Origin: Lytechinus pictus
Lineage: Eukaryota
Direction of reading: 5' to 3'
Assembly: GCF_037042905.1 (NCBI RefSeq)
Contig: NC_087250.1
Coordinates: 12,836,001-12,900,000, forward strand
DNA: 64,000 nucleotides
Positions 16,048 to 52,420 of this stretch are shown piece by piece. The position numbers and the translations under genes are program-made. The notes under the pieces are model-generated. The model ran no database searches. It was not told where the DNA came from and worked only from the letters and a program-made list of their open reading frames with translations. Each line of letters starts with the position of its first letter. The stretch's first letter is position 1.

Positions 16048-16834
16048 TCCATACTATGGTGACAAATCGAAATGTGATAAGCAGATTCCTCATGAAAAAT
16101 TACCCCTCTTTACAGGTTTCTTTAAAAATTTACCGTCTACTTTGTTTTCGTTAGGATTTTTGTTGTCCACACACAAACCAAATGGGCTTCTGACCTCGGA
16201 CTCATTGAGACAAAATTCTGCGTGGAAAAGATTATGTTTTTTCTTTTGTCCTGTAGGTTGTAGCGAAGCAATTTATTGGGAGAGATTGTCTCCCATCTTG
16301 GTGAGAGTCTCCCATATTTGTAATTGCCGTGCGCCTCTACTGCACTAGCAAGTTCAGTTATCTCCATGAGTGCGAGGACTGTCAATTTAGTCAAATTTTA
16401 GGGATTTTTCATGGCACTTCATGTCTTCAGATTTAGCCAACAGCCATACTTGCGCCAGAAATATTCAAATTTAGATGCCCGCGCAACATACATGTACTTT
16501 TGTAGGTTGTTGGACTGACATTGACTTTGGGCTAAAATATTAGAAAGTAGGATATTGCATGGTTCTCCCCCCACAACTAACAAAGACAAGTTGAAGTTGT
16601 TCCATGCAAAGTCAATTCACTTTCAGTAGGTTTTTATGTACGTATTTATGGTGAAAGATGAGTCGTACATGGTTCAAAACATCAAAGTACTCTATGATTA
16701 TATTCAAGTAACTTTATGTACGCTTCAGATTGGAAGTGCTGTATCATTGTCAGTGCCATTTGGAAGCGCAGTAGCTGAGTTAGTAGAGCATTGGTTCCGT
16801 ACAGTAATCTTTTAAACCAGGGATTGAACCTTAA

Positions 16835-17418
16835 AGGAGAATGAAACTCTTGGAGCAAGTTAGCTTTTGTGAAAGCAGAAAAATAAAAGAATAAGATCAA
16901 CAAAAGTTTGAGTAAAATAGGACTAGCAATAGAAGAGTTATGAGCATTTGAATGTCGAGATCACTAACGCTATGGAGATCCTCCCATTGGCAATGCGACC
17001 AAGATCTATGATGTCACAGATGAACAACTCTCCCCTTTTGGACTCTGAAAATATACCCCAAAACATCTCTTTTTGCTCATTCTAATCATATGACAAACGA
17101 TTCATCAACGATATAATGTTGTGAAACCTCTGTACCTGTCCTCTCATAAAGAGAACACCTCACCTTGTGATAGACTCTATAAAAGTGAGAATATAAGTGA
17201 AATAAGTACTAAAGTAATGAGGGAGTTGTACGTGTGTGACATCACAGATCTTGGTCGCATTGCCAATTGGAGGATCTACATGGCATTCGTGATCTCGACA
17301 TTCAAATGCTCATAACTTTCTTATTATTCATTCAATCCTCCTCAAACTTTCCACAATATGTTTCTTTGACTTTTCTCTTTGATATGGATTCAGCTGGTTT
17401 CAAGGGTTTCATTCTCCT
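16835..17418. mobile_element. Palindromic MITE with TTAA TSD (Kolobok-like)
   Basis: ttaa|AGGAGAATGAAAC...GTTTCATTCTCCT|ttaa with long inverted arms. Confidence 0.8.
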
Positions 17419-17422
17419 TTAA

Positions 17423-18240: not shown

Positions 18241-18821
18241 AGGGATGGTCCGGGCTGAAAATATTTATGGCTTAATAAATAGAGTAGAATTCACTTAGCA
18301 AAATGCCAAACATTTCATCAAAATCGGATAACAAATAACAAAGTTATTTGATTTAAAGTTTAGCAATATTTTGTGAAAACAGTCGTCATGAATATTCATT
18401 AGGTGGGCTGATGATGTCACATCCCCACTTGTTCTTTTGTATTTTATTATATAAAATTAGGTTTATTCAAATTTTTTCCTCCAAGAACTAGAAATATTGG
18501 ATGACAACTGATTTAGTGCATTAAATATTTATTGCTGCAACTTATTCAATTATAAGGGAGACATATTATTCACACAAGTATGAAATAATGAAAAAATTAT
18601 GATTTTATGTAATAACATAAGAAAATGGAAAGTGGGGATGTGACATCATCAGCCCACCTAATGAATCTTCATGAAGACTGTTTTCACAAAATATTGCTAA
18701 ATTTTAAACTTCAATAACTTTATTATTTGTTATCCGATTTTGATGAAATTTTCGGCATTTTGTTCAGTGAATTCTACTCTATGTATTAAAGATATAAATA
18801 TTTTCAGCCCGGACCATCCCT
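18241..18821. mobile_element. Palindromic MITE (Kolobok-like), same family as 1145-1732
   Basis: AGGGATGGTCCGGGCTGAAAAT...ATTTTCAGCCCGGACCATCCCT|ttaa. Confidence 0.85.
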
Positions 18822-34017: not shown

Positions 34018-35337
34018 ACACAATATTGAATTTTTTGAGTTGTTTGAGTGTTTGATTGCGTTCGGCGCACATGATTTTTCTAGAGAAATTCACGTTTGTG
34101 TGTGTGTGATGATGTTCCTTTATCATAAGAGTCCGGGGGTGGGGAAGGGTATGGTTGTGAGAATATACACTACCAGTCACAATTCTTTGACTCACTATTA
34201 CCTGTTTCAGCCAGAGACCAATAGAATCAGTGGACCAAATCTATTGTACTCTGGTTGAAACGGGTAATAGTGATTTAAAGAATGGTAACTGGTACTGTAC
34301 ATCATCAAGGATATAAATAACGTCATAATCTCATAGCGCCCTCCCTCAGAGGATATAGGAATACGCGAAGAGTTGTCAAAGAAGCGCCAGCTGCTGATCA
34401 TCCACACATGCAAGGCAATGGCTTCAGCCTCTAAGATGGCGGCGCAATGACATCAATGCATAAGGTCAATCAGTAAGAATTCCAAGCAAGAGGTGCATTT
34501 GGAACACTTCTAACACAACCCAGGGTGTCTGGATTATTTGAAAGGTAACAAGTGTGGGTAATTGTTTGGGTGCCCGAAGGAAAAAAAAGGAAGGAATAAA
34601 GACGAGGAGGATAAGGTGTAGGCCTTTTATTATCGACTGTCATCTAATTAATTTATACTCTAGAAAGTTATCAAGACATAAAAAGGACCGGATGTGACAA
34701 CACTACACATGCTATAAAAAAGTGTTAAGAGTAATTCTTATTCTTATTATAATTGCACTTCAACCATGATTTTGTTACTTAATCCGGCAGTGAGCATATT
34801 TAAGATTTCGATAATAATTCAGTGATTACATTACTAAACTTAGAAAATGTGGTCCCTTGCCATTTTGACAAGCTGCGCTTAACCGTTGTGACCGGAACAT
34901 TCTCTTCAAAGCATCTCCATTGTCACACACTGGCCCAAGATTCTTTCAAGGTACTAACTGTACTGAAATAAAACCCCTGTGTGTTCACAGTGTGGACCAC
35001 AATGTGAAATCATTATTATGCTTAAATGTAAAAATGAATCATATTTGCACATAATCCATTATGTGAACACACTGTGAGCACATGAACATACTGTGAACAC
35101 ACAGTGAATGTACTGTGAACATACCATGGACAAACTTATGAGGCGCCGAATGTACCATTATTATATAGAACAATTATTTGTTATATAATCATTATTTATT
35201 AAATAATAACTATTATTTATATATAATTTACATTTTATTTGTAAATAACTACTATTATATAAAATATCATTTCTAATTATTTATATATAATTCCAAGTAA
35301 TACTTCATTATTTGTAAATAATAATAGTTCGACATTC

Positions 35338-35945
35338 CATTATTTATAAATAATGATTATTTGTTTTTCATTATTTATAAATAATGATTATTTGTTTTTC
35401 ATTATTTATAAATAATGATTATTTGTTTTTCATTATTTATGAATAATGATTATTTGTTTTTCATTATTTATAAATAATGATTATTTGTTTTTCATTATTT
35501 ATAAATAATGGAAAACTCAACAAATTATTTATAAATAATGAAAAACAAATAATCATTATTTATAAATAATGAAAAACAAATAATCATTATTTGTAAATAA
35601 TGAAAACGTCTACTTCATTATTTATAAATAATTTTTTCGAGTGCACCATTATTCTCATTATTTATAAATAATCATTATTTAATGTTCGAGTTTTCCATTA
35701 TTTATAAATAAAGATTATTTGTTAAATAATGAAATATCTACTTCATTATTTATAAATAATAATTTTGTTTCAATATCCCATTATTTATAAATAATCATTA
35801 TTTATAAACAATTTTTACAGTTTGCCATTATATACAAATAATCATTATTTATATACAAATAACCATTATTTATTAAATAATGCCATTATTTATTAAATAA
35901 TGCCATTATTTATTAAATAATGCCATTATTTATTAAATAATGGAA
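35338..35945. repeat. AT-rich repeats in the left fold-back arm (31-bp unit with an 18-bp palindrome)
   Basis: cattatttataaataatgattatttgttttt repeated, followed by (tgccattatttattaaataa)n; mirrored at ~49515-50170. Confidence 0.9.
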
Positions 35946-36539
35946 AACTCGCTATAACATGCAAATGTGGGACCGCCCATGATATGAATATTCATGATGC
36001 GATTTCCTTTTTCGTGATTTTTCTTCACAAATTTTTGTCCATTTCCTCTTCATAATGACATTTCTTGAAGCAATTTTCTAGGGATATGGTCTGATTGTAA
36101 TATTCTTCATTTTCTATATAACTTCGTCTTCGTAGAAATATCAAAAAGTGTAATTTTATACGATTTTTCCTACAGTTCACAATCCCCATAGGCGCGCGTG
36201 TACGGTAGGGACAACCGGTGAATCGACGGAGTGCTCTTCATCGAAATACTACGTTGGTTGGTCCCCGGAAGTGGCGGGCGGAATTTAGCCCGAATCCTCG
36301 ATGGAAGTCGATCAAGTGCATATGAGCTGAGAGAGTGAAATATCAGTGTACTTGTACAGGCCCTTCTACTTTTTATAAATATTTCTTGTTGCTTTTTTTG
36401 TTAAGTTAATTTTTCCTGGTGTAGAAATAAGTTTCAGTTCTAATAATGCACTTCAAATACATTTTGGAGTGTCTGTTTGAGGCGTTTGGGGCGATTTCAC
36501 CCTGGCCCCCCCTTACAAAAAATTCCTGCAGTACTTTAG

Positions 36540-37620
36540 TGGTACTCTGTTGTACCTGTGTGATACTTCTGTCATACACGACGGTACCTCAGAATTACCA
36601 CAGGACTTCTGTGGTATCACTCTGTGATAGTTCTGTCATACTTCTGTGGTACAGGAAAATATGAAAATTTCATGCAATACCTTAATGGTACTCTGTCGTA
36701 CCTGTGTGATACTTCTGTTGTACAAAACTGTATATAGAATTACAACAGGACTTCTGTGGTATCACTCTGTGATAGTTCTGTCATACTTCTGTGGTACAGG
36801 AAAATATGAAAATTTCATGCAATACCTTAATGGTACTCTGTCGTACCTGTGTGATACTGCTGTTGTACAAAACTGTATATAGAATTACAACAGGACTTCT
36901 GTGGTATCACTCTGTGATAGTTCTGTCATACTTCTGTGGTACATAAAAATATGAAAATTTCATGCAATACCTTAATGGTACTCTGTCGTACCTGTGTGAT
37001 ACTTCTGTTGTACAAAACTGTATAAGGAATTACTACAGGACTCCTGATCTACTTCTGTGGTACATAAAAATATGAAAATTTCATGCAATACCTTAATGGT
37101 ACTCTGTCGTACCTGTGTAATACTTCTGTTGTACATAACTGTATACAATATCACTCTGTGATAGTTATGTCGTACTTCTGTTGTACATGAAAATTCTAAA
37201 ATATCCTGCAGTACTTCTATGACAACCCTGCGATACTTCTGTTGTATATGAACATTTTTTAAATTTCCTGCAGTACTCCTATTACTAAGCACTTCTATGG
37301 AAACCCTGTGATACTTCTGTGGTACATGAACATTTTGAAATTTCCTGCAGTACTCGATCCTATTAAAGACACTTCTATGAAAACCCTGTGATACTTCTGT
37401 GGTAAATGAAAATTTTGAAATTTCCTGCAGGACTCAATATAGGCACTTCTAAAATTCTATGGCAACCCCAGTGCTATACTTTCAAAATTTCCTGCGGTAC
37501 TTCTCATGCAGCCACCCCAGAAATATGACTGAAACTGTATCACAGACGCTACTGGTGTATTTTCTGTGGTACAGTACATGAAAAAATTAGTTTCCTTCAG
37601 TACTTGTATGGAAGCCCTGT
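36540..37620. repeat. Left subterminal repeats (145-bp unit decaying into shorter units)
   Basis: gtggtaca..aaaatatgaaaatttcatgcaatacc at 36646, 36791, 36936 and 37057; core motif ctgtg[a/g]tac. Confidence 0.9.
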
Positions 37621-40600
37621 TTGTACCACAGACTAATTTTTTTATTTCCAGTGAGGGATTTATCTTTTTTTTCAGTTTCGGGAGAGGTCAGTAGCGTATT
37701 GAGTCTTATATTTTTAGAAGGCCATATGGCTTAAAAGGGCACCATTCATTTTAAAAAGTACAATTTTTTATATGAAAATTTAATTTTGTGATAGCTAGAT
37801 TGTGACATATAGGCCCTATTTCAAAATTATATTTCACCCTGTCCCATTGTGTAGGTCTATATCAGCGAGGGGGGGGGGGTTATGCCTACTGAGACTCAGA
37901 GGTTTTAAGTTTGATAGCTTCTATTTCTACGAGAAAGGGTACTATACGTACTAGATCAAAACTAGGAGCAAAGCGCGAACTGAAAAATGCGAAAAATTAT
38001 TGACCCCAAAATGGGCAACTTATATTTTGAGGACTATTGTTCGTTTTCAGGGTTATTTCTTTTTCATGCGCTCTTTTAAATTTCAATTATCATTTTTGTT
38101 TTGTTTGTTCGCCACTTATTTTTCATAAAAAACAGGATGAATAATAAAAAAATGACTATATTTAAAAGGGTACGTGTTGAAATATACAGGACACACCTAA
38201 CACTCTTAGAGCTTAATGGTTGTGAGGAAGCCGGGTTGAATTTCAAAGAGATATTGTAATGAATAAAAATATAAGCATGAACGTATTATTCTACTTCATC
38301 CATCTCTTTCTAACAATACAAGAAAATAATTGAAGGGGAGGTCAACGCTAGAGATAATCAATAAATAGAGTAAAATTCACAAAACAAAATGCTTAAAATT
38401 TATTCAAAATCGGATGACAAATAACGAAGTTAAGTTGAATTTTAAGGATTTGCAATATTCCCATGAAACAGTTTTATTTAGGCATGTCTCATGAATATTC
38501 ATTAGGTGGGCTGATGATGTCATATCCCATGTTCTTTTGTACAATATATGAAATTAGATTTATTCAACATATTTCTACCAAGAACTTAAACAATTGGAAT
38601 GACGACTAATTAACCGCATTAGTTATTTAATGCAGCAACTTTACAATGGGGACACATTATTTACACATGTATTGAAAAAATAGATAATCATAATTTCATA
38701 TCTAACATTAAAAAAGAAAAATGGGAATGTCACATCATCAACCCACCAAATGAATATTCATGACGATGTGCACACTATCTGTTTTCACAAAATATTGATA
38801 AACAATTAACATAAGAAAGTTCAGCGTTGAATGTTGATTAAAAAATAAATCTCAGTTAAAATGCTATCTAAGATTTTGTTTTACACGTTTCATAACCAAG
38901 TTTTAATGCGATTCTGGCCCCTTAAAGTTTTTATTGCGAGAAAATACATTTTTCCAAGTTTCCCATCTATTTTTTTATTTATTTTTTTTTAGTAAAAAGG
39001 ACCTATTTTCTTACAAATATATTATTATAAATAAAATTACTTCAATATTTGTTCTCCTATTCACAATATTTTTTACAGGTGGAATAGGATAAACTAAAAA
39101 TAGGATATTTAATTTCCATTTTAAGGCCTATTTTTTGCTTTATATCCCCGGTTTATATCTTTGCCACCTTGCAATATGTTAGCCAGGCTGGTTTATATCT
39201 ATTTCTTTTTAAATCAAATAAATTTGGATATTTTCAATCTATTTTTATGATGCGAAGCTATATATAGTTTGTAAATATGTTTTTTAATTGCAAGAACAAT
39301 CTTGTATCTCTGTTCACATATGATGGCAGTTTATTTTGCTTCTTTTTTTCTAATTTGTATGAAGTTTGTATCTATATATTTTCAAACTATTTTCCATCCT
39401 TAAAGTGTCACAACCGATCATATTATTTTTTACCTCGTTGGCAAAGTTATTTTTTCTTATGTTTCGCTTCAAAATGGTATCTTTATATTTGCTTGTCTTG
39501 CTCCTCCACCCCTTATCAAAATACCCTGCCGGCACTTGATCTAAGATTATTTTCTTTTACTACTTGAACCTTATAAAGGGATCTTTCCTTCGATCGCAAG
39601 AAAGGATAAAATGTGTGTTTTTGAAAAGAAATAAAATTAAAAATACATAGGATTGGAGCTGTGATTTTCCTCATTGCTTTCTTTGTCATCCTACTTGCAT
39701 ACTGGTAGGCCTATATAACATATTTTCAGTAAAATTGTGAGACATGTTTTTAAATCCTATCCTTATATTAAAAAAAAGAATAAAGAGAAAGAAAAAAATT
39801 AAAAGACATAGAAAAGAAAAAGAAAGGAAGAAGAAATAAATATTTGAATTTTACTTTATTCAATTCCTTTACGTTAATAATATGATATATAAATGATGGC
39901 GAAAATAGTCAAATTGTCTGGTTTCCAAGTAAAAAGTAAGACCCCCCCCCCCCCCCTCCGAGCTCAAACGCACGGACTGTACCGTATACGTGTTTCCGGT
40001 TCCGCCATTTGAAAAAAAACGTTCGTAACTGCTCAGCTGAACCCGAAGCTTGATGAAGAAGGCCGTCAATATTTCAACAAAAACTAACAGAATATGGATC
40101 AGATTCGGACAACGACTTCTTAAGACATTCACACAACAGGCTAAACAGTAAGTTAGATCCATTTTTCGTAGTTTGGCGCGGCATGCACTTAAATTTCTTC
40201 GACTTTTTAATCATTACCGTACGGCCACTGCACTGCCGTTGTTCCCGATCGCTTATCGGGTGGGGGCTGATCTGCGGTGTGCGCGGCCGGGGACGGCCAA
40301 CGGCTGGCTAAGTTAGTAGTATATTGATGGCGGCGGTGAGGATGTTTGTATTGTCATGATTGTAGCCAGGTCAGGGGTGGGCGCTAATGCAGTTTCGCAC
40401 CGGCCGATTAATACCAGCATACCTCATCACCAATATTTGTTCCCAAATGTCATGACAAGTCTCTCAGTCACATTTGAAGTCAATATATCCACCACTTTTC
40501 AAAATATCGTGATCGGGAATGGCTGTAGGCCTAGCCAGGCGGCTTCTAGAGAGTGAAAATCATTTACTAACGTAACTTCGTAAGGTCACTCTCATATGAA

Positions 40601-41541
40601 GCCAGGGATCCTTTCTCATATACCCACACAGAGGAAGCCAAAACTTGAAACTTTCACCCCCGGCCCCGAGATTTCTACTTTCCTTCTAAAAGATCTAGCC
40701 TAACGTTAGACCTAAATCATGTACATGGGATAAAACTTAATTTCCAACATTTCTACGCTCTCGTCGTTATTTTTGAAGAAGAAATTCATTCCAAAAAATG
40801 CGAAAAATATCATGATTAGACGGAAGAGACTTGCCCGATGTTTACGCCGCCATCTATGTGAGAAACTTCATGTTGGCTCTAAATCATCAATTTTGAGACG
40901 GATAGAGGCATGGAGAAGAACTGAAACTTTGTGTGCAGGAAGAATATTAGTTTTAATTTTTTTAAAGAGCGTGATGTTGCATGAATTTGATATCCCCCCC
41001 CCCCCCCATAAGATCCCACTTTTTGTCACTCGGAATATCAGATCGACAGATCCAGTTCACGGTCTCAAAGTTTGGGTAGGTGGAGCGTAGTGTAGCAATA
41101 GTGAAGTGGAGTGGAGCCTGCACAAACTTCACTCGAGGTAGGCAATCCCACAAATTTAAAAGAGGTTTCTATAAAATCAAGTCCGGCCTTCTATGAACAT
41201 GACAAACTTACGAAAAGATGTGAAGTCAATTCACCCTAAATATCATCAATATCCCTCAAATAGCTTCATTTAAGCACTAATTTCTCTTCCGGTTGATAAA
41301 ATATGGATCCGTCTTTAATTTCCAAAATTGTTCGTCTAACTAGCTAAAGGACGCATGTTTTATCTACATATTAAAGACACTACATAGAAAAGACTAGGCA
41401 CAAAGACTATTATACATGTAAATCGATGCAAAGCATTACGCGATGTCGGCAAAGTGCCCAATCTTCTTATTGTAAAGACTTTAGCGACAATAACAGACTG
41501 TGAGTAAGGTTAAAATGCTCCTCTACTTTTAATGTTTTCAT

Positions 41542-42528
41542 TAGTGCTGTTGTCGGGAACAAAAATCCATGTCGACATGTCGCTTAAAAATTAATCCCGA
41601 CATCGACAATGTCGACATGAAAAAGGGACCGTAATTTAGCCTGGGCTCCCTAACATAAAAAAAAAGCATTCGATCGTGGAACAACACTCTCAATCAAATA
41701 TATTCACCTTGACACGAGTGATATCCCCACACTAGATCTATATAATACAGGCTCAGTTCGGGAATTGAGCTTCCAAAATCACCGATTTAATCCACATTTT
41801 TTTTCTGGAGAATCAAGTTTTTGTACCAGGATCCGGTTTCGAAAGCATTGCTCAATAACACTCGTAGCCAATTTGAGAATCACCAATTACAACAGTGATC
41901 ATTGCTGCAAACGCAAGCTCCTCAATTTGACAATGAAAAGTAATGAAAATCGACCGATAATTTCAGTATCACTTCCGCGGCGATCCGTGCAACGATCTCC
42001 AAACGAATGAAGGGAAGTTTTCTGTGACTTCGTGATATGAAGTAAGCGCTCAATTGCGGCAGTCACAACTTTGACAAAAACACGTGTTCGCTGCTGCTCA
42101 CGTTTATGTGAAAAGTAATGCATTGAGGAGCAACGTATTATCAAGCACGGTGAATAGCGCGCGATGGGTACATATTTCCGTGGATGGGTACGGTGAATGC
42201 TACTCTCGCTATAACGGGATATCGAGGGCGGCTCGATCGGGCAGGCCGGCCCTGCACTGACGTATTTCTACTGCCGCACAGCTCGCAGATATTCTTTTTT
42301 CATTTAATGCGCTGCTAAGCTGAATAAACCTTTTAATCGCGCCAATTACTGTGGATAAATGCTTCTAACTTTTCAGCTAATCTTTACACTCGTGATTGTA
42401 GGCTAGACCCCTTTTTATTTTATGTTTACATGTCGATGTGGGTGCGTGCATGTCGACATGTCGGAATTTTGAAAATCCTTCGTATGTCGACATCAATGTC
42501 GATATGAGGCCTATCGACAACAGCACTA
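41542..42528. mobile_element. hAT-type non-autonomous element (8-bp TSD)
   Basis: gttttcat|TAGTGCTGTTGTCG...CGACAACAGCACTA|gttttcat; subterminal atgtcgacat repeats. Confidence 0.88.
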
Positions 42529-43985
42529 GTTTTCATTGATTTTATGTTGAATATTATTAAAGAATATGACTCTTTGCACCTGAATTGTAACACTGAAATA
42601 TGGAAATGAAGAAGTTTTATCATGTATTTTTATTACATCATGTATTTGTATTAACCTGCAAATAAAATTTTACTATGTCACTCAAATTCATTTCATTTCA
42701 TTAAAGATTCAAAGAGGGATCTCTGGATGATCGAGCAGCAAGTCCAGCATTATGTGGGAAAGATACTACAGGTGTACACAGAAAAGGCCATGTTCTTGTA
42801 CAAGACACGGTTGGAGTTCATAAAAGGTGATTATATAGGCATTCACTTCAGTAGATATTATAATTACAAAATTAAGCAGATTGTATTCATGCAGTGGCAT
42901 ACAGTGTAATCCTTGTTAGAAGATGTAGATTTATTCTTCATTGTTTTATTAAAGAGTTTCAATATGTGCTTATGACAATTTGTTTGCATTATAAATTGTT
43001 TGTCACTCTTCGGCTTAGTTTGCTTTTATAAGCAAGAATATGCTAAGAGAGATAGCCGCAAGGACCTCATTATCCGATAGATATGTACTTGTGAAAAGAG
43101 ATCTAGATGGGGGCAAAACACCTTATTTCTTGTATTTTTATGTTGTTCATGTTATCGTAATGGTATGTGTTTTTTTTTCTACAGATTAAGCTGCCTCGTG
43201 CTATACAGACTTGGATAAAAACAAGCTGTCCAATGAATGGTGACTACTCAAGAGGAGCCAGAAAGTCAACTAAAGCCAGGGTATTTTGGGAGTTGATATG
43301 GCCGGGGAAGGGGGGAGGGGGGGTTTCCAGGGCCCCCCCCTTCCTTGAGATCTTGACCGCACAATCGTGTCTAACATTGGCACATGGGTTGTCTAGGGCA
43401 TAATTTACAAAATTAAATTGTAAATTATTTCACGCAAATTGTTAGTAAGTGATAATACTAATTTATGCGTAATTAGAATACAAAATCATACTTTTTCCTC
43501 TATTGCATTGACTTTGTACACAAAATCACGTTTTTGAGCAATTTTTGGTATGACATGTACTTACATAATGTCACGTTATTACAGAACCACGTACCGGGTG
43601 ACACAAGATTGGTCTCAAAAGATGCACAAGACTAGAAAGAGGCATGTTTTAAAAAAATTGTGCGACAGCATGGTCGCAAAATTTTTGGAAGGGGGGGGGG
43701 GTCAAATTGGTCCAATTTAACTAAGGGTTAATAACTGGGAGGCTGTTAGCTGCCTTTTTACTTTCAAGTCTTGCACATCTTTTGAGACCAAATTTGTGAT
43801 GCCTGGGTACGCTGTTCCGAAATTTCGCAACATTTTTATGTATTAATCCAACACAAATACTGTTTCTTGCTAAAAATTCACAATTAGTATACCAGTAATA
43901 TACATTTATCAAGTCAAATTATTTAATTACATTTATAATCATAAAAGCTTTGATAAAGTATAAAAAAAAAACAAAGAGTTGTATG

Positions 43986-44879
43986 TAGGCCTGGGACTTT
44001 CGGGTTTTTTCTCTTCGGGTACCCGTGGTAATTTTCGGGTGGGTACCTGAAAATCATGTCACTTGAAATATGACTGGTGGAAAAACCCCATAGGTGACGT
44101 CATCAAGCCAATGCGATGCAAGCCAATTTATGAATGAAAATATAGTAAGCATGCGCATTGCAAGCCTCCCGTGCCCCACGCAGTATTCCATCGAAACAAG
44201 TTTCAATACTCTGTCACCTCGTACCAAAATCGACCTAGAATTCCACTTTCCTATATATCATATGAATTATAAAAGGTTTTCTCACCGATACTGCACAGGT
44301 AAGCAAATTTTTATTCTTGCTTTTCCGTCAAAATCTTACGAAGTAGCATCGATATTACATCGTGTTCGTGAGTTTGTATCGCTACGTGAACAAAGTCAAT
44401 TGATTTCCGGGTTTCGGAGCGTCAAATGCGCCAGCCAATCACGATCGTGTTCCCATTTTCGGTTTATGATGAACTAAAAATGGTAACAAGAACGTGATTG
44501 GCTGGTGCTTCGTAGGTCGATTTTGGTATGAGGTGACAGAGTATTGCAGACTTGTTTTGACGTAATACTGCGTGGGGCTGAGGCTTGCAATGCGCATGCT
44601 TACTATATTTTCATTCATAAATTGGTTTGCGTCGCAGTGGCTGGATGACGTCACTGCGCTGCAAAAGAAACATGGCGATGATTGAACGATCTCGGTCACA
44701 TATTTAGAGGGTAATTGGTGAAATTCAAAATGAGGCTTGTGTACTTTTGTAATGAGTTACAATCATGTCTTACACTACGCAATACAAATCAAATACATGT
44801 ACATTATACTGGTGAGCAATTTTCGGGTATCGGGTATTGATTTTTCTACTCGGGTACCCGGGTTTTAGTCCCAGCCCTA
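43986..44879. mobile_element. hAT-type non-autonomous element (8-bp TSD)
   Basis: gttgtatg|TAGGCCTGGGACT...AGTCCCAGCCCTA|gttgtatg; subterminal tcgggt repeats; internal inverted repeat ~44094-44238 / ~44513-44654. Confidence 0.88.
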
Positions 44880-46789
44880 GTTGTATGAAAATTTTCAAAA
44901 ATAATGAAAGGTAAAAGAAAACAAGATTACAATGTCCATTGCAAGGGGGCTAGTCTAGCTATTCAGGATAATTGGGATTTTATTCAGTTTTTAATTGACA
45001 TAACATTATGACAAGATCCCTCCATTTAGTGTATAAACAGCACATGGCCATGATTGAAATTCATATAACATTAAAGTATGCAAACCAGGCAGCTACATGT
45101 ACATGTAGGACTCACTGCTTGTCAATTCTATTGTCTGCCAGGGTCAAGTGACATACAGTGCACATGTATAACATGTGTGAAAGTACATAAGAAAATCAGC
45201 TTTTTATTTTTGTACTGTAACATTGGGTGAACTGGTGATCACTTTGGATATGATGCTCTTCATATTGGTTTATTTTATGTATATGAATTTTTGGATAATC
45301 ATTAAGAATTAAAGCCATTTACTTAATATATGGAAGCATAAGCCCATCAAAGAACAGAATTATGTCATGTACAGCTAATTCATTTTGCGTGATATTACAA
45401 TTGTAATTGTTTACTTGAGCAAGTAATTTGAATTGCTGCATGACCTAAACAATGACATGTTCCAATTCGAATAGTAACATGACCTAAAGAAGAGTTACTC
45501 CACCTCGATTGAGAGTGCTTATGTTGAATAATTGATGTTGCTACTTCAAATAATTGAGGTCAATCAAATTGGTCATAATTATTCAAGTCAATTTTGAGCT
45601 ATATGTCATAATTAATTAGGTCATATACTAATTGAAATTACTAAATGACTCGAGTAGGTATGAATTCACATTGCCACATGACCTTAATTATTTTATGTAG
45701 CAACATCAAGTATTGAACGTCATTTAGTTATCAATTATGACATGTAGCAAATCAAATTACATGCCGCAATTTCGTGTTTATGATGGGCTCATGCTTACAT
45801 TCATATATAACCCTTCAATACGTAGTTGGAGCAATTCTTAGACAAGAAGACTGTGTAAAATGATATGCCTATTCAATGTCAAAAAGGTTAATGTCTCAAT
45901 AGATTTGATCTACGTTTTGGCAAAGTAATGTTATGTTCATATTTTTTCTAACCTATGGTGAACGTTCTAAATCATGTGAAATTCATTCAAAAATATCTTT
46001 CAGTATTTATGGACTTAAGTGAATTCTGAGCAAAATGAAGTGATTATGATTACGTTCATGTACTTTAAGTTTATACTGGTGATCAACACATCATAATTTC
46101 ATCCCTTACTGTATGTGCACCATGCATTATCTGTACATGCAGAAGTGGTTATCCATTGTTTCATAACATGGTTGAGTAAAGGATGTTCTGCTTTTAGTAT
46201 TAAGCCAATCGGGTGTTGACAAGAAGGGGAAAATGCAATTGCTCAGCTATTACAGTTTTTTTTGCAACCATAATACTGGTTAAGCCTTGGTTACATTCGC
46301 CGGCTCGTGGCCTTACGTCGAGTCAAAATTAACAGTCTTAATCATCCTTGTACCAGCTACTACCAGCTACACGTGGGTGGTTTGTACAGGAATACCTAAA
46401 ACTGCTGATTTTGTCTCGACGTAAGGCAACCGGTCAAGGAATGTGACCAAGGTATTAATAATAATCGCTTATTGTTGTGTTAGAGGGAAGGATTCTGGGT
46501 CGAATCTAGCTTTCTTTATGTGATCTCAAAATGGCAGCAATGTATGAATAGTGAAAGTAGTTCATGTGGCATCTCAATGTTCATGGATATAAATCTTTGT
46601 ACATGTCTTATCCTAAAGATGAAATGTTACTGCATTATTCTAGCAGTCATTTATGATATCAAAGATGTTCTATACTGTGCATAGTACAGCTCATACATAA
46701 TAAAGGTATGTGAATATGCTTTTAACGTCTTTGCAAATTTGTGGGTTTTTTCACGCCTCTTTTCATTAGTCAAGATGTCAAAGTTGTTG

Positions 46790-47800
46790 TGCTGGATCAC
46801 AGGAAATTCTTACAAACTACTACGCCTAACAAACCAGTGCAGGACGGTGTCGTGAGAAAATCGCACAGACTACTACAGGACAATACCATAGGATTGTCAC
46901 AGGAAATCAACAAGAATACCCCTGCAGGATTACCACAGTAAAGTATCACAAGAAGGCTACAGGATGAGACCAATAATGCCACAGAAGATATCAAAGATCA
47001 GTATCACAGGAATACCACAGGACAGTACTGCAGGAATTGTCCTGCGGTAAGGTCTCTTGGTATTCCTGCAGTACTGTCCTGTAGTACTGTTCTGTAGTAC
47101 TTTCCTGTGATACTGGTCTGCGGAATTCCTAAAGTACTGTCCTGTCATACTGTCCTGTGATACTATTTATCACCACAGGATAGTATCACAGGACAGTACT
47201 ACAGGAATACCAGACCAGTATCACAGGACAGTACTACAGGAATACGAGACCAGTATCACAGGACAGTACTACAGGAATACCAGACCAGTATCACAGGACA
47301 GTACTACAGGAATACCAGACCAGTATCACAGGACAGTACTACAGGAATACCAGACCAGTATCACAGGACAGTACTACAGGACACAGTACCAGAAGCCTGC
47401 GGTACTCCTGTAGTACTGTCCTGCGATACTGTTCTGTAGTACTTCCCTGTGATACTGGTCTGTGGTATTCCTGTAGTACTGTCCTGTCATACTGTCCTGT
47501 CATACTATCCTGTCATACTGTCCTGTCATACTATCATGTGATACTATCCTGTGATACTATCCTGTGATACTGTCCTGTAGTACTAATAGTAGTGTGGTAG
47601 TGGTTGTAGCGGTTGTAGCGGTTGTGGTGATCGTGTCCTGTCATACTTCCTGCCATACTTATGCGGTTATTACCACAGGAAGTATCACAGGACACGGACC
47701 TGTTGTACTCCTGTTGTACATTTCTGTAGTACCGTCCCAAATTACGTGCACGTAATTCCTGCAGTACTTTCCTGCGATACTTCCTGCAGTACATATCACA
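46790..47800. repeat. Right subterminal repeats including a 35-bp tandem array
   Basis: cagtatcacaggacagtactacaggaataccagac repeated ~47181-47385, flanked by inverted copies of the same motif. Confidence 0.9.
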
Positions 47801-50370
47801 GAGTACTACAGGAATTTTTTGTAAGGGCCAAAATGCTCGCAACGACAATACGGGGGCATGATGACCCCTAAATTTTAAAAACTTATTTTTCTATTGAAAA
47901 TTATCACAAAATTCACCAGAAGTGTGCACGAAAGCCTTCGTATTTCACTTTTAAAACTCCGAAAAGTGCCCAAATGACAAGCTTGGTCGCTTCGCTGTGT
48001 CGCTTTCAACTTGAGAACGTTTACGCGTCTGCTCCCCCCCCCCCCTCCTCCGAAAGAAATTCTGTATACGGCCATGCTCTAAAGAGCCTGGCACATTGAT
48101 TTATGTATACTTACATTTTCATTATTTTTATCTCATTATCAACATGGCCTTACGCATAATTTTTTCCAGGGGGGCCGGGGCCGGAGCATGACGCGCGTAA
48201 ACTTTCTCAAAAAAATCTTGAAAGCGAGACAGCCACGGGACCAAGCCCAAATGACAAGCTTTGTCGCTTCGCTGTCTCGCTTTCAACTTGAGAACGTTTA
48301 CACGCGTCTGCCCCCACCCCCCGAAAGAAATTCTGTGAACAGCCATGCTCAAAAGAGCATATGGCACATTGATTTATATGTACTTTTCATTTTCATTATT
48401 TTTATCACATTATCATCATGGCCTTACACAGAATTTTTACCGGGGGGGGGGGGGGGGGGGCAGCTAGGACGCGCGTAAAGTTTCTCAAAAAAATCTTGAA
48501 AGCGAGACAGCGACGCGACCAAGCTCAAATGACAAGCTTGGTCGCTTCGCTTTCTCAAGATTTTTATGAGAAAGTTTACGCGCGTCCTGCTCCCCCCACC
48601 CCCCCCCCCGGAAAAAATTCTGCGTAAGGCCATGATGATAATGAGATAAAAATAATGAAAATGAAGTATACATAAATCAATGTGCCAGGCTCTTTAGAGC
48701 ATGGCCGTATACAGAATTTCTTTCGGAGGAGGGGGGGGGGGGAAGCAGACGCGTAAACGTTCTCAAGTTGAAAGCGACACAGCGAAGCGACCAAGCTTGT
48801 CATTTGGGCACTTTTTGGAGTTTTAAAAGTGAAATACGAAGGCTTTCGTGCACACTTTTGGTGAATTTTGTGATAATTTTCAATAGAAAAATAAGTTTTT
48901 AAAAAATTAGGGGTCATCATGCCCCCGTATTGTCATTGCGAGCATTTTGGGGCCAGGGTGAAATCGCCCCAAACGCCTCAAACAGACACTCCAAAATGTA
49001 TTTGAAGTGCATTATTAGAACTGAAACTTATTTCTACACCAGGAAAAATTAACTTAACAAAAAAAGCAACAAGAAATATTTATAAAAAGTAGAAGGGCCT
49101 GTACAAGTACACTGATATTTCACTCTCTCAGCTCATATGCACTTGATCGACTTCCATCGAGGATTCGGGCTAAATTCCGCCCGCCACTTCCGGGGACCAA
49201 CCAACGTAGTATTTCGATGAAGAGCACTCCGTCGATTCACCGGTTGTCCCTACCGTACACGCGCGCCTATGGGGATTGTGAACTGTAGGAAAAATCGTAT
49301 AAAATTACACTTTTTGATATTTCTACGAAGACGAAGTTATATAGAAAATGAAGAATATTACAATCAGACCATATCCCTAGAAAATTGCTTCAAGAAATGT
49401 CATTATGAAGAGGAAATGGACAAAAATTTGTGAAGAAAAATCACGAAAAAGGAAATCGCATCATGAATATTCATATCATGGGCGGTCCCACATTTGCATG
49501 TTATAGCGAGTTTTCCATTATTTAATAAATAATGGCATTATTTAATAAATAATGGCATTATTTAATAAATAATGGCATTATTTAATAAATAATGGTTATT
49601 TGAATATAAATAATGATTATTTGTATATAATGGCAAACTGTAAAAATTGTTTATAAATAATGATTATTTATAAATAATGGGATATTGAAACAAAATTATT
49701 ATTTATAAATAATGAAGTAGATATTTCATTATTTAACAAATAATCTTTATTTATAAATAATGGAAAACTCGAACATTAAATAATGATTATTTATAAATAA
49801 TGAGAATAATGGTGCACTCGAAAAAATTATTTATAAATAATGAAGTAGACGTTTTCATTATTTAACAAATTATAATTATTTATAAATAATGGAAAACTCA
49901 ACAAATTATTTATAAATAATGAAAAACAAATAATCATTATTTATAAATAATGAAAAACAAATAATCATTATTTGTAAATAATGAAAAACAAATAATCATT
50001 ATTTATAAATAATGAAAAACAAATAATCATTATTTATAAATAATGAAAAACAAATAATCATTATTTATAAATAATGAAAAACAAATAATCATTATTTATA
50101 AATAATGAAAAACAAATAATCATTATTCATAAATAATGAAAAACAAATAATCATTATTTATAAATAATGGAATGTCGAACTATTATTATTTACAAATAAT
50201 GAAGTATTACTTGGAATTATATATAAATAATTAGAAATGATATTTTATATAATAGTAGTTATTTACAAATAAAATGTAAATTATATATAAATAATAGTTA
50301 TTATTTAATAAATAATGATTATATAACAAATAATTGTTCTATATAATATTGGTACATTCGGCGCCTCATA

Positions 50371-52420
50371 CAAACTGTGACCACAGCCTACAAACTTTGA
50401 GCACACCATGAACATACTGTAAACACACCATTAACACACCGTGAACCGACAGTGTACATACTGTGAACACACATTGAATGTACTGTGAACATACCATCGA
50501 CAAACTGTGACCACACCATGACCACAGCCTAAAAACTTTGAGCACACCATGAACGTACTGTAAACACACCATTAACACACCATGAACCGACTGTGTATAT
50601 ACTGTGAACACACAGTGAATGTACTGTGAACATACCATAGACAAACTGTGACTACAACATGACCACAGCCTAAAAACTTTGAGCACACCATGAACATATT
50701 GTAAACACACCATTAACACACCGTGAACCGACTGTGATCATACTGTGAACACACAGTGAATGTACTGTGAACATACCATGGACAAACTATGACCACCATG
50801 ACCACAGCCTAAAAACTGAGCACACCATGAACATATTGTAAACACACCATTAACACACCGTGAACCGACTGTGTACATACTGTGAACACACAGTGAATGT
50901 ACTGTGAACATACCATAGACAAACTGTGACCATCCCATGACCACAGCTTAAAAACTTTGAGCACACCATGAACATACTGTAAACACCATTAACACACCGT
51001 GAACCGACTGTGTAAATACTGTGAAAACACAGTGAATGTACTGTGAACATACCATAGACAAACTGTGACCACAGCCTAAAAACTTTGAGCACACCATGAA
51101 CATACTGTAAACACACCATTAACACACCGTGAACCGACTGTGTGCATACTGTGAACACACAGTGAATGTACTGTGAGCATACCATAGACAAACTGTGACC
51201 ACACCATGACGACAGCCTAAAAACTTTGAGCATACCATGAACATACTGTAAACACACTGTGAACACACAGTGGATGTACTGTGAACATACCATAGACAAA
51301 CTGTGACCACACCATGACCACAGCCTAAAAACTTTGAGCACACCATGAACATACTGTAAACACACCACTAACATACCGTGAACCGACTGAACATTCTGTG
51401 AACACACAGTGAATGTACTGTGAACATACCATGGACAAACTGACCACACCATGACCACAGCCTAAAAATTTTGAGCACACCATGAACATCCTGTAAACAT
51501 ACCGTGAACCGACTGTGTACATACTGTGAACACACAGTGAATGTACTGTGAACATACCATGGACAAACTGACCACACCATGACCACAGCCTAAAAACTTT
51601 GAGCACACCATGAACATATTGTAAACACACCATAAACACCGTGAACCGACTGTGAACATACTGTGAACACACAGTGAATGTACTGTGAACATTCCCGCAG
51701 TATGTTCACAGTGTGGAACACACCCCTGTAAACACACTGTGGACACACCGTGAACACACCAACATATTGAGAACACACCATGACCATTTAAGAATTCCCG
51801 CAGTGTGGAACACACCCCTATAAACACACTGTGGACACACCGTGAACACACCAACATATTGAGAACACACCATGACCATTTAAGAATTCCCACAGTGTGG
51901 AACACACCCCTGTAAACACACTGCAAACACACCGTGAACACACTAACATATTTAGAACACACCTTGACCATTTAACAATTCCCACAGTGCGGAACACACC
52001 CCTGTAATCACACTGAAAACACACCGTGAACACACTAACATATTTAGAACACACCTTGACCATTTAACAATTCCCACAGTGTGGAACACACCCCTGTAAA
52101 CACACTGCAAACACACCGTGAACACACTAATATATTGAGAACACACCATGACCATTTAAGAATTCCCACAATGAAGAACACACCCCTGTAAACACACTGT
52201 AAACACACTAACATATTGAGAACACACCATGACCATTTAAGAATTCCCACAGTGTGGAACACAGCCCTGTAAACACACTGCAAACACATCGTGAACACAC
52301 TAACATATTGAGAACACACCATGACCATTTAAGAATTCCCACAGTGTGGAACACACTGTGAAAATACTGCGAACACACCATGAACACACTAACATATCGA
52401 GAACACACCATGACCATTTG
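50371..52420. repeat. Satellite-like array (~140-bp units switching to ~75-bp units near 51700)
   Basis: actgtgaacacacagtgaatgtactgtgaacataccat[a/g]gacaaactgtgacc repeated; the start of the same array lies at ~34975-35136. Confidence 0.92.

Follow-up and report, generated by a model that had tools for sequence, protein, structure and literature searches.

The 64,000-nucleotide window of Lytechinus pictus DNA analysed here (contig NC_087250.1, positions 12,836,001 to 12,900,000) contains at 36510-47827 an element of 11,318 bp, beginning with CCC and ending with GGG, which we regard, at a probability of roughly 0.8, as a non-autonomous member of a young, high-copy CMC (CACTA/EnSpm-like) cut-and-paste family that is moved in trans by the transposase of a longer relative on another contig. 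An earlier note, made from the letters of the window alone, had taken it for a Pack-type CMC/EnSpm-like element carrying about 9 kb of non-transposase cargo. The evidence for the reading preferred here comes from the ends of the element, from its copies in the genome and from a 27.6-kb relative that has the same terminal inverted repeats (TIRs) and encodes a TNP2-type DDE protein.

Ends of the element and its family in the genome

The features at the ends of the element and in the adjoining host DNA are as follows.

36508-36509, unstranded: left copy of the target site duplication (CC), from the empty-site comparison
36510-36535, plus strand: left TIR, 26 bp, first bases CCCTTACAAAAAATT
36510-37660, plus strand: left subterminal region, dense in the motif CTGYVRTAC, with arrays of 145 bp x 3.6 (36518-37046) and 80 bp x 3.1 (37213-37451)
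46781-47827, minus strand: right subterminal region, dense in CTGYVRTAC, with an array of 35 bp x 5.7 (47182-47381) and a 13-bp array
47802-47827, minus strand: right TIR
47828-47829, unstranded: right copy of the target site duplication (CC), from the empty-site comparison
48949-48950, unstranded: built-in empty site in the opposite host fold-back arm, from the pairing of the host arms

When 36510-36535 is compared with the reverse complement of 47802-47827, 25 of 26 bases are equal, the difference being C/T at position 20. The subterminal repeats occupy about 1.1 kb at either end, where the density of CTGYVRTAC is 21/kb (left) and 39/kb (right), compared with 0.1/kb inside the element and 0.2/kb in the flank. 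The surrounding host DNA is an inverted repeat in which 35594-36509 pairs with 48949-49864 at 100% over 916 nt and a second segment, 47828-47890, pairs with 48888-48950. The opposite arm of this fold-back is a clean empty site (...ctggcccc/aaaatg...) without an insert, and because it is uninterrupted, the target duplication of the insertion in the window can be given as 2 bp (CC). The 26-bp TIRs with one mismatch and CCC...GGG ends, the dense subterminal repeats and the clean insertion with a 2-bp duplication, all described in the earlier note, are thereby confirmed.

For the copy number, a 25-nt TIR pattern was searched with at most two mismatches on both strands of the 811-Mb genome, with the reversed pattern as control. 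The pattern gave 87 forward and 87 reverse matches, the control 0+0. Pair sizes were measured among the first 100 TIR places listed, which comprise 43 convergent pairs and 14 unpaired ends: one pair measures 10.8 kb, 22 measure 11.25-12.0 kb, seven 12-15 kb and 11 15-18 kb, and two exceed 18 kb (24.1 kb and 27.6 kb). With about 87 copies of 11-17 kb, the family accounts for roughly 1 Mb of the genome.

Full-length comparison covered 11 of the approximately 87 copies, namely the window copy and ten others. Together with the 27.6-kb relative, 12 of 12 insertions are flanked by 2-bp duplications (GA three times, TT, AA and CC twice each, and TG, TA and CT), and because the duplications differ in sequence, the 11 family copies go back to separate insertions rather than to segmental duplication. 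For the left 1,151 bases, at least 30 other places match over the full length at 96-98%; for the right 1,047 bases, the number is about 39, at 95-100%. The DNA search with the interior scored the best 16-40 candidates only; the 9,120-base interior was matched at 99% in 16 of 16 scored candidates, each match directly abutting matches to the ends. Every scored copy has the same 9-kb interior enclosed by the same TIRs, which shows that the element moves as one unit; the earlier note had supposed this and had proposed multiple copies bounded by the same TIRs as a check.

Six young copies show a pairwise identity of 99.64-99.80% over 11.2-11.7 kb, with 6-21 private substitutions per copy (10 in the window copy). 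The family has probably been active recently and may still be active today. In comparison with the typical 11.7-kb copies, the window copy has a 359-bp deletion, located at 40856-40858 (unstranded) in the alignment of the six copies; among these, the gap at about 40856 is found only in the window copy and in C4:27208616, and in the typical copies the 359-bp stretch is one arm of an inverted duplication. The forms of 15.4-17.3 kb constitute an older subfamily with 94-97% identity and about 4 kb of extra DNA in the middle.

Two further observations concern relatives and neighbours of these copies. At C9:16968723-16968860, the right end of one copy lies 88 bp from the end of another, the two facing each other; neighbouring insertions of this sort could give rise to composite elements. 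In an other-species DNA run, short contigs match the family-specific interior at 37665-37801, 37991-38126 and 39129-39262 with about 90-96% identity and a depth of 24-71. Judged from these sequences, a related family with the same interior probably exists in that other species.

The host fold-back (35137-36509 and 47828-50370) is itself a multi-copy repeat and looks like a Foldback-type transposon. A search with its 1.1-kb centre, 47828-48950, gave 662 first-look candidates, and 39 other places were scored as matches at 96-99%; the centre also matches its own opposite strand at about 85%. The arms of the fold-back, perfectly paired beside the insertion as given above, contain 31-bp and 20-bp AT-rich tandem arrays. 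An assembly artefact was considered as the origin of the perfect fold-back and was ruled out on account of the 39 other scored copies of the centre.

The 27.6-kb relative and its transposase

A genome search with Pfam PF02992 (Transposase_21/TNP2) yielded 12 matches, one of which is an 836-aa (amino acid) open frame inside the TIR pair C8:25607893-25635502. This 27.6-kb element, referred to here as the C8 relative, has TIRs that are 25/25 identical to those of the family and is flanked by the duplication TT. The search for an autonomous element with the same TIR, which the earlier note had recommended, was thus successful and agrees with its CMC/EnSpm-like classification. Of the 27.6 kb, 17 kb were compared with the family, C8:25617793-25628602 (10.8 kb) lying outside the comparison. 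The left kilobase of the C8 relative is 71-78% similar to the left end of the family (36510-37660 in the window) and contains a comparable array (135 bp x 3.1), and its right ~6.4 kb are colinear with the right ~4.7 kb of the family at 67-81%. CTGYVRTAC occurs at 16 and 54/kb at its two ends; across both elements, the density is 16-54/kb in the ends as opposed to 0-0.2/kb elsewhere. No second set of terminal repeats was found beside the transposase gene of the C8 relative, and the gene is for this reason unlike part of a nested foreign element.

The open frame corresponds to residues 72-904 of the annotated 904-aa 'uncharacterized protein LOC135155125 [Lytechinus pictus]', and exon 1 (71 aa) has a single genomic match, 3.2 kb upstream of the open frame and inside the C8 element. 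Besides another sea urchin, the sources of its homologues (E-values down to 1e-250) are fishes, cnidarians, molluscs and arthropods, and many of these homologues carry PF02992. In an alignment of 10 homologues, D332, D418, C437, C440, H648, H652 and E672 are invariant; a DDE triad with C(2)C and H(3-4)H is given as the transposase pattern of EnSpm/Mirage/Chapaev/Transib in PMC12730594. The Transposase_21 score of the protein is 29.5 bits in the genome search and 26.8-27.0 bits by hmmscan, at a cut-off of 28.6 bits. Other TNP2-like frames of this genome are 32-37% identical to the C8 protein, apart from a broken copy with 61% identity.

On other contigs there are at least six more long TNP2-like open frames (774-914 aa; loci L031, L033, L034, L036, L039 and L040) with the same 32-37% identity, which suggests several separate CMC lineages with intact-looking genes in the genome. 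A palindromic miniature inverted-repeat transposable element (MITE)-like sequence of about 590 bp at 16831-17422 of the window is 97.5% identical to L043:1912-2503, nested in the C8 relative; because this copy lies in an element on another contig, the palindrome represents a second young mobile family.

Within the family itself, the search for a transposase was negative throughout. The window copy has no open reading frame (ORF) of 154 aa or more, and Pfam gave chance-level matches only for its 97 stop-to-stop ORFs of at least 45 aa, the sole match over a curated cut-off being HgmA_C (21.9 vs 21 bits), which is marginal and lies inside the 35-bp repeat array. No credible Pfam match was obtained for 87 ORFs from the extra parts of three long variants, and tblastn of the cognate 904-aa transposase against the 11 family copies found nothing at E<=10. 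Rfam gave 0 matches and a tRNA scan 0 genes over 35000-50500. The variants of 15.4-17.3 kb were considered as autonomous forms and ruled out: four of five are without an ORF of at least 150 aa, the fifth has low-complexity ORFs only, and there was no Pfam match. The window element is non-autonomous and without a transposase of its own, in agreement with the earlier note, which had seen no transposase ORF inside. That a transposase or another mobility protein is nevertheless spread over many small exons missed by the ORF scans would be in line with a spliced transcript that apparently originates from the interior (see below), but the tblastn result in 11 copies, the lack of a credible Pfam domain in ORFs of at least 45 aa and a spliced form without an ORF above 127 aa make this explanation extremely improbable.

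According to the reading of the element as a passenger of the C8 relative, the 904-aa TNP2-type DDE transposase would recognise the common 25-bp TIR together with the subterminal CTGYVRTAC repeats, cut out the 11-12 kb unit in full and integrate it again at a target cleaved with a 2-bp stagger. The interior of 9 kb would then be the family's own body, composed of the backbone of an autonomous-type ancestor, old repeats from the master copy and about 5.3 kb of other DNA, and would be copied faithfully with each jump. We infer the pairing of the C8 transposase with this family from the shared ends. Several points weigh against this reading. Outside the TIR, the ends of the C8 relative are only 67-81% similar to those of the family, so that cross-mobilisation is no more than plausible; the termini are 5'-CCC..GGG-3' and not the usual 5'-CA..TG-3' of the clade; and the hmmscan score of the transposase is just below the cut-off. 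The middle of the element, about 5.3 kb at ~37860-43130, is without a counterpart in the 17 kb compared of the C8 relative, whose remaining 10.8 kb may include nested insertions or a break of the promoter. Finally, the full-length evidence comes from 11 of about 87 copies only.

Composition of the interior and the origin of the middle

The interior contains the following features, in addition to the deletion site mentioned above.

36510 to about 37860: left backbone, the left ~1.35 kb common with the C8 relative by sequence similarity
38358-38803, unstranded: old nested MITE-like repeat, common to all copies, matching 1271-1701 and 18274-18787 of the window at 68-81%
39800-40147, plus strand: CpG-rich promoter-like stretch and putative first exon, donor AACA/GTAAGT at 40147/40148
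42707-42826, plus strand: putative exon 2, GT..AG joints 40147 to 42707 and 42824 to 43183 (cut +2)
43132-47827, plus strand: right backbone, colinear with the right ~6.4 kb of the C8 relative, nested repeats at 43275-43834 and 44094-44654 included
43185-46720, plus strand: putative long last exon, AATAAA at 46699, no ORF above 127 aa
43275-43834: old repeat with matches elsewhere in the window
44094-44654: inverted-repeat unit, inverted pair 44094-44237 / 44513-44654

By sequence similarity, at least 6 kb of the element is backbone common with the transposase-bearing relative, and this common part includes a splice acceptor at 43184 with its polypyrimidine tract and its AG. The earlier note had also described old degraded repeats inside the element, which is correct, as 38358-38803 and 43275-43834 match other parts of the window at 68-89%. 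The interior repeats are common to all copies, so that the master copy must have carried them when the burst began, and later insertion does not account for them. In an other-species DNA run (X10), the depth is 10^4-10^5 on 38128-39069, 40326-42523 and 43152-45035, and very high on the repeat at 38358-38803, compared with tens to hundreds on family-specific parts; because of this depth, about 5 kb of the interior can be said to resemble very abundant interspersed repeats. The numbers of first-look candidates, 447 and 420 for two family-specific pieces and 11,023 for the whole interior, are all above the copy number. In the search for a donor locus, the best 16-40 candidates scored were all family copies.

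The CpG-rich stretch noticed earlier was likewise found again, with a CpG observed/expected ratio of 1.15-1.29 over 39800-40400 and a GC content of up to 56% at 40200-40400, and the putative first exon is situated at its edge. The exon-like pieces of the earlier note are backed only in part, by two GT..AG joints, 40147 to 42707 and 42824 to 43183 on the plus strand, each present in a single contig of one run (X1) whose RNA status is guessed. The depth of this run is about 424 over 44859-46314, as opposed to 4-8 on other family-specific parts. The acceptor consists of a T-rich tract followed by CAG/A, and the splice sites are conserved in all 11 copies compared, which include both subfamilies. 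Two raw RNA runs, of which about 6% was sampled, contained none of the listed GT..AG joints and had a depth of 0-5 on family-specific parts; no sequence run listed as holding the stretch is recorded as RNA. The spliced form has no open frame above 127 aa. We read the putative spliced unit, with modest support, as a non-coding, element-derived transcript in some samples and not as evidence of a captured gene.

A 38-mer from exon 2 has 88 matches in the genome, about the copy number of the family. Three of the matches with 0-2 mismatches, C2:63220588, C3:78238351 and C5:55520531, are outside every TIR pair listed for C1-C10 and may be truncated copies or possible donor loci. A more divergent subfamily, with 2-3 changes in the 38-mer, is represented by C5:13666109-13677724, C22:464374, C22:901391, C5:55520531 and C20:1241308, and in the copy at C5:13666109 the exon-2 region is located 2.4 kb from the left end, compared with the usual distance of about 6.5 kb.

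These data bear on the Pack-type interpretation, according to which the middle at ~37860-43130, with the CpG-rich stretch and the putative exons 1 and 2, is host DNA that was captured between CMC ends and then amplified. An animal CMC element would in this case have spread a host-derived spliced transcription unit, consisting of promoter and exons, to about 88 genomic places. Such an origin would fit the lack of a match in the 17 kb compared of the autonomous relative, the promoter-like CpG-rich stretch with canonical splice sites, the resemblance of the middle to ordinary intergenic or intronic DNA with old repeats, and the three exon-2 matches outside known TIR pairs. However, Pfam detected no domain in the window copy (97 ORFs) or in the long variants (87 ORFs), ORFs above 127 aa are absent from the spliced form, and the exon-2 count of 88 is close to the copy number of the family. 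In addition, the autonomous relative has a homologue of the last-exon acceptor, so that at least this part of the transcription unit belongs to the element backbone, and a counterpart of the middle may be situated in the 10.8 kb of the relative outside the comparison. Capture of the middle is therefore considered unlikely, and the Pack-type reading of the interior is not supported: the analysis found no fragment of a host coding gene, element backbone makes up the right ~4.7 kb and the left ~1.35 kb, and much of the middle consists of common interspersed repeats. Before the 'cargo' of a single copy is called capture, it needs to be checked against the family.

As an alternative, the earlier note had suggested a composite element with an internal terminus at 37657. 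Two smaller elements, one of them ending ...ccagtgaggg at this position, would together with the DNA between them have been mobilised through the outer TIRs, a route to new DNA that is proposed for Pack-CACTA/Pack-TYPE elements in PMC8903248. By manual count, 37645-37657 resembles a terminus at 9 of 13 bases. Nevertheless, the left block continues directly into the interior in every copy, no TIR pair about 1.15 kb apart exists among the 100 places listed, and CTGYVRTAC is nearly absent from the interior (one occurrence in 9.1 kb), so that a composite origin is very unlikely.

Comparison with known systems

The element resembles dSpm/I beside En/Spm in its short TIRs, the long subterminal arrays of a short motif at both ends, the lack of its own transposase, the short target duplication and the ends in common with a TNP2/Transposase_21-type relative. 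The start of its TIR, CCCTTACAA, is similar to the Arabidopsis CACTA TIR 'CACTACAA' quoted in PMC8903248. It differs from dSpm/I in its sea urchin host, a duplication of 2 bp instead of 3 bp, CCC..GGG instead of CAC..GTG termini, a length of 11-17 kb that is nonetheless combined with about 87 copies, and ends that outside the TIR are only 67-81% similar to those of the candidate partner. A MITE, with a size of hundreds of bases, is not a suitable description of an element of 11,318 bp in a family in which 41 of the 43 measured pairs are 10.8-17.8 kb long.

With the plant Pack-CACTA/Pack-TYPE elements, as presented in PMC6379663 and PMC8903248, it has in common that it is non-autonomous, has CACTA-type ends and a long non-transposase interior, and moves as a unit; the structural part of the Pack-TYPE definition (non-autonomous, TIRs, duplications, no transposase) applies to it in full. 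According to PMC8903248, however, Pack-TYPE elements are set apart from other non-autonomous elements by a BLAST match to host coding genes. Unlike these, the family showed no host coding fragments by Pfam on the 97 and 87 ORFs, a domain search and not a direct comparison with the host gene set. Because no fragment of a host coding gene was found, the element is a 'non-Pack-TYPE' non-autonomous element in the scheme of this source, which describes Pack-CACTAs as mostly low-copy, in contrast to the approximately 87 copies here. If the middle were captured after all, the family would be an animal analogue of plant Pack-CACTA; whatever the origin of the interior, the system may still jump in a sea urchin used as a genetic model.

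Among animal elements, Mirage has a 2-bp target duplication. The likeness to Chapaev/Mirage consists in a transposase DDE with C(2)C and H(3-4)H, seen in the C8 relative, and in short duplications. Chapaev is characterised by duplications of 3-4 bp and invariable 5'-CAC..GTG-3' termini (PMC4079192), in contrast to this family, in which the duplications are 2 bp and the termini CCC..GGG. As regards the CMC clade as a whole, the transposase signature is present in the C8 relative and not in the window element, which has no transposase; the duplication falls within the 2-5 bp of the clade, being 2 bp in 12 of 12 cases and in one empty site; and the termini, 5'-CA..TG-3' in most cases according to PMC12730594, are 5'-CCC..GGG-3' in all 100 TIR places listed.

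Judged by titles and abstract openings, none of the papers listed on sea urchin CACTA elements or on transposable elements in the genome of Lytechinus pictus describes this family. Copies of 11-12 kb that are only 0.2-0.4% apart, beside one transposase gene that looks intact, are signs of a very recent CMC burst in a sea urchin, possibly still going on. Such a burst bears on genome stability and on insertional polymorphism in laboratory lines, and the combination of one enzyme gene with many large passengers would offer a natural pair in which to study the movement of very long DNA by CMC transposases in animals. In comparison with the systems discussed, the family belongs to a known kind and is less usual in combining a length of 11-17 kb with about 87 copies, extreme youth, CCC termini and a single candidate source of transposase.

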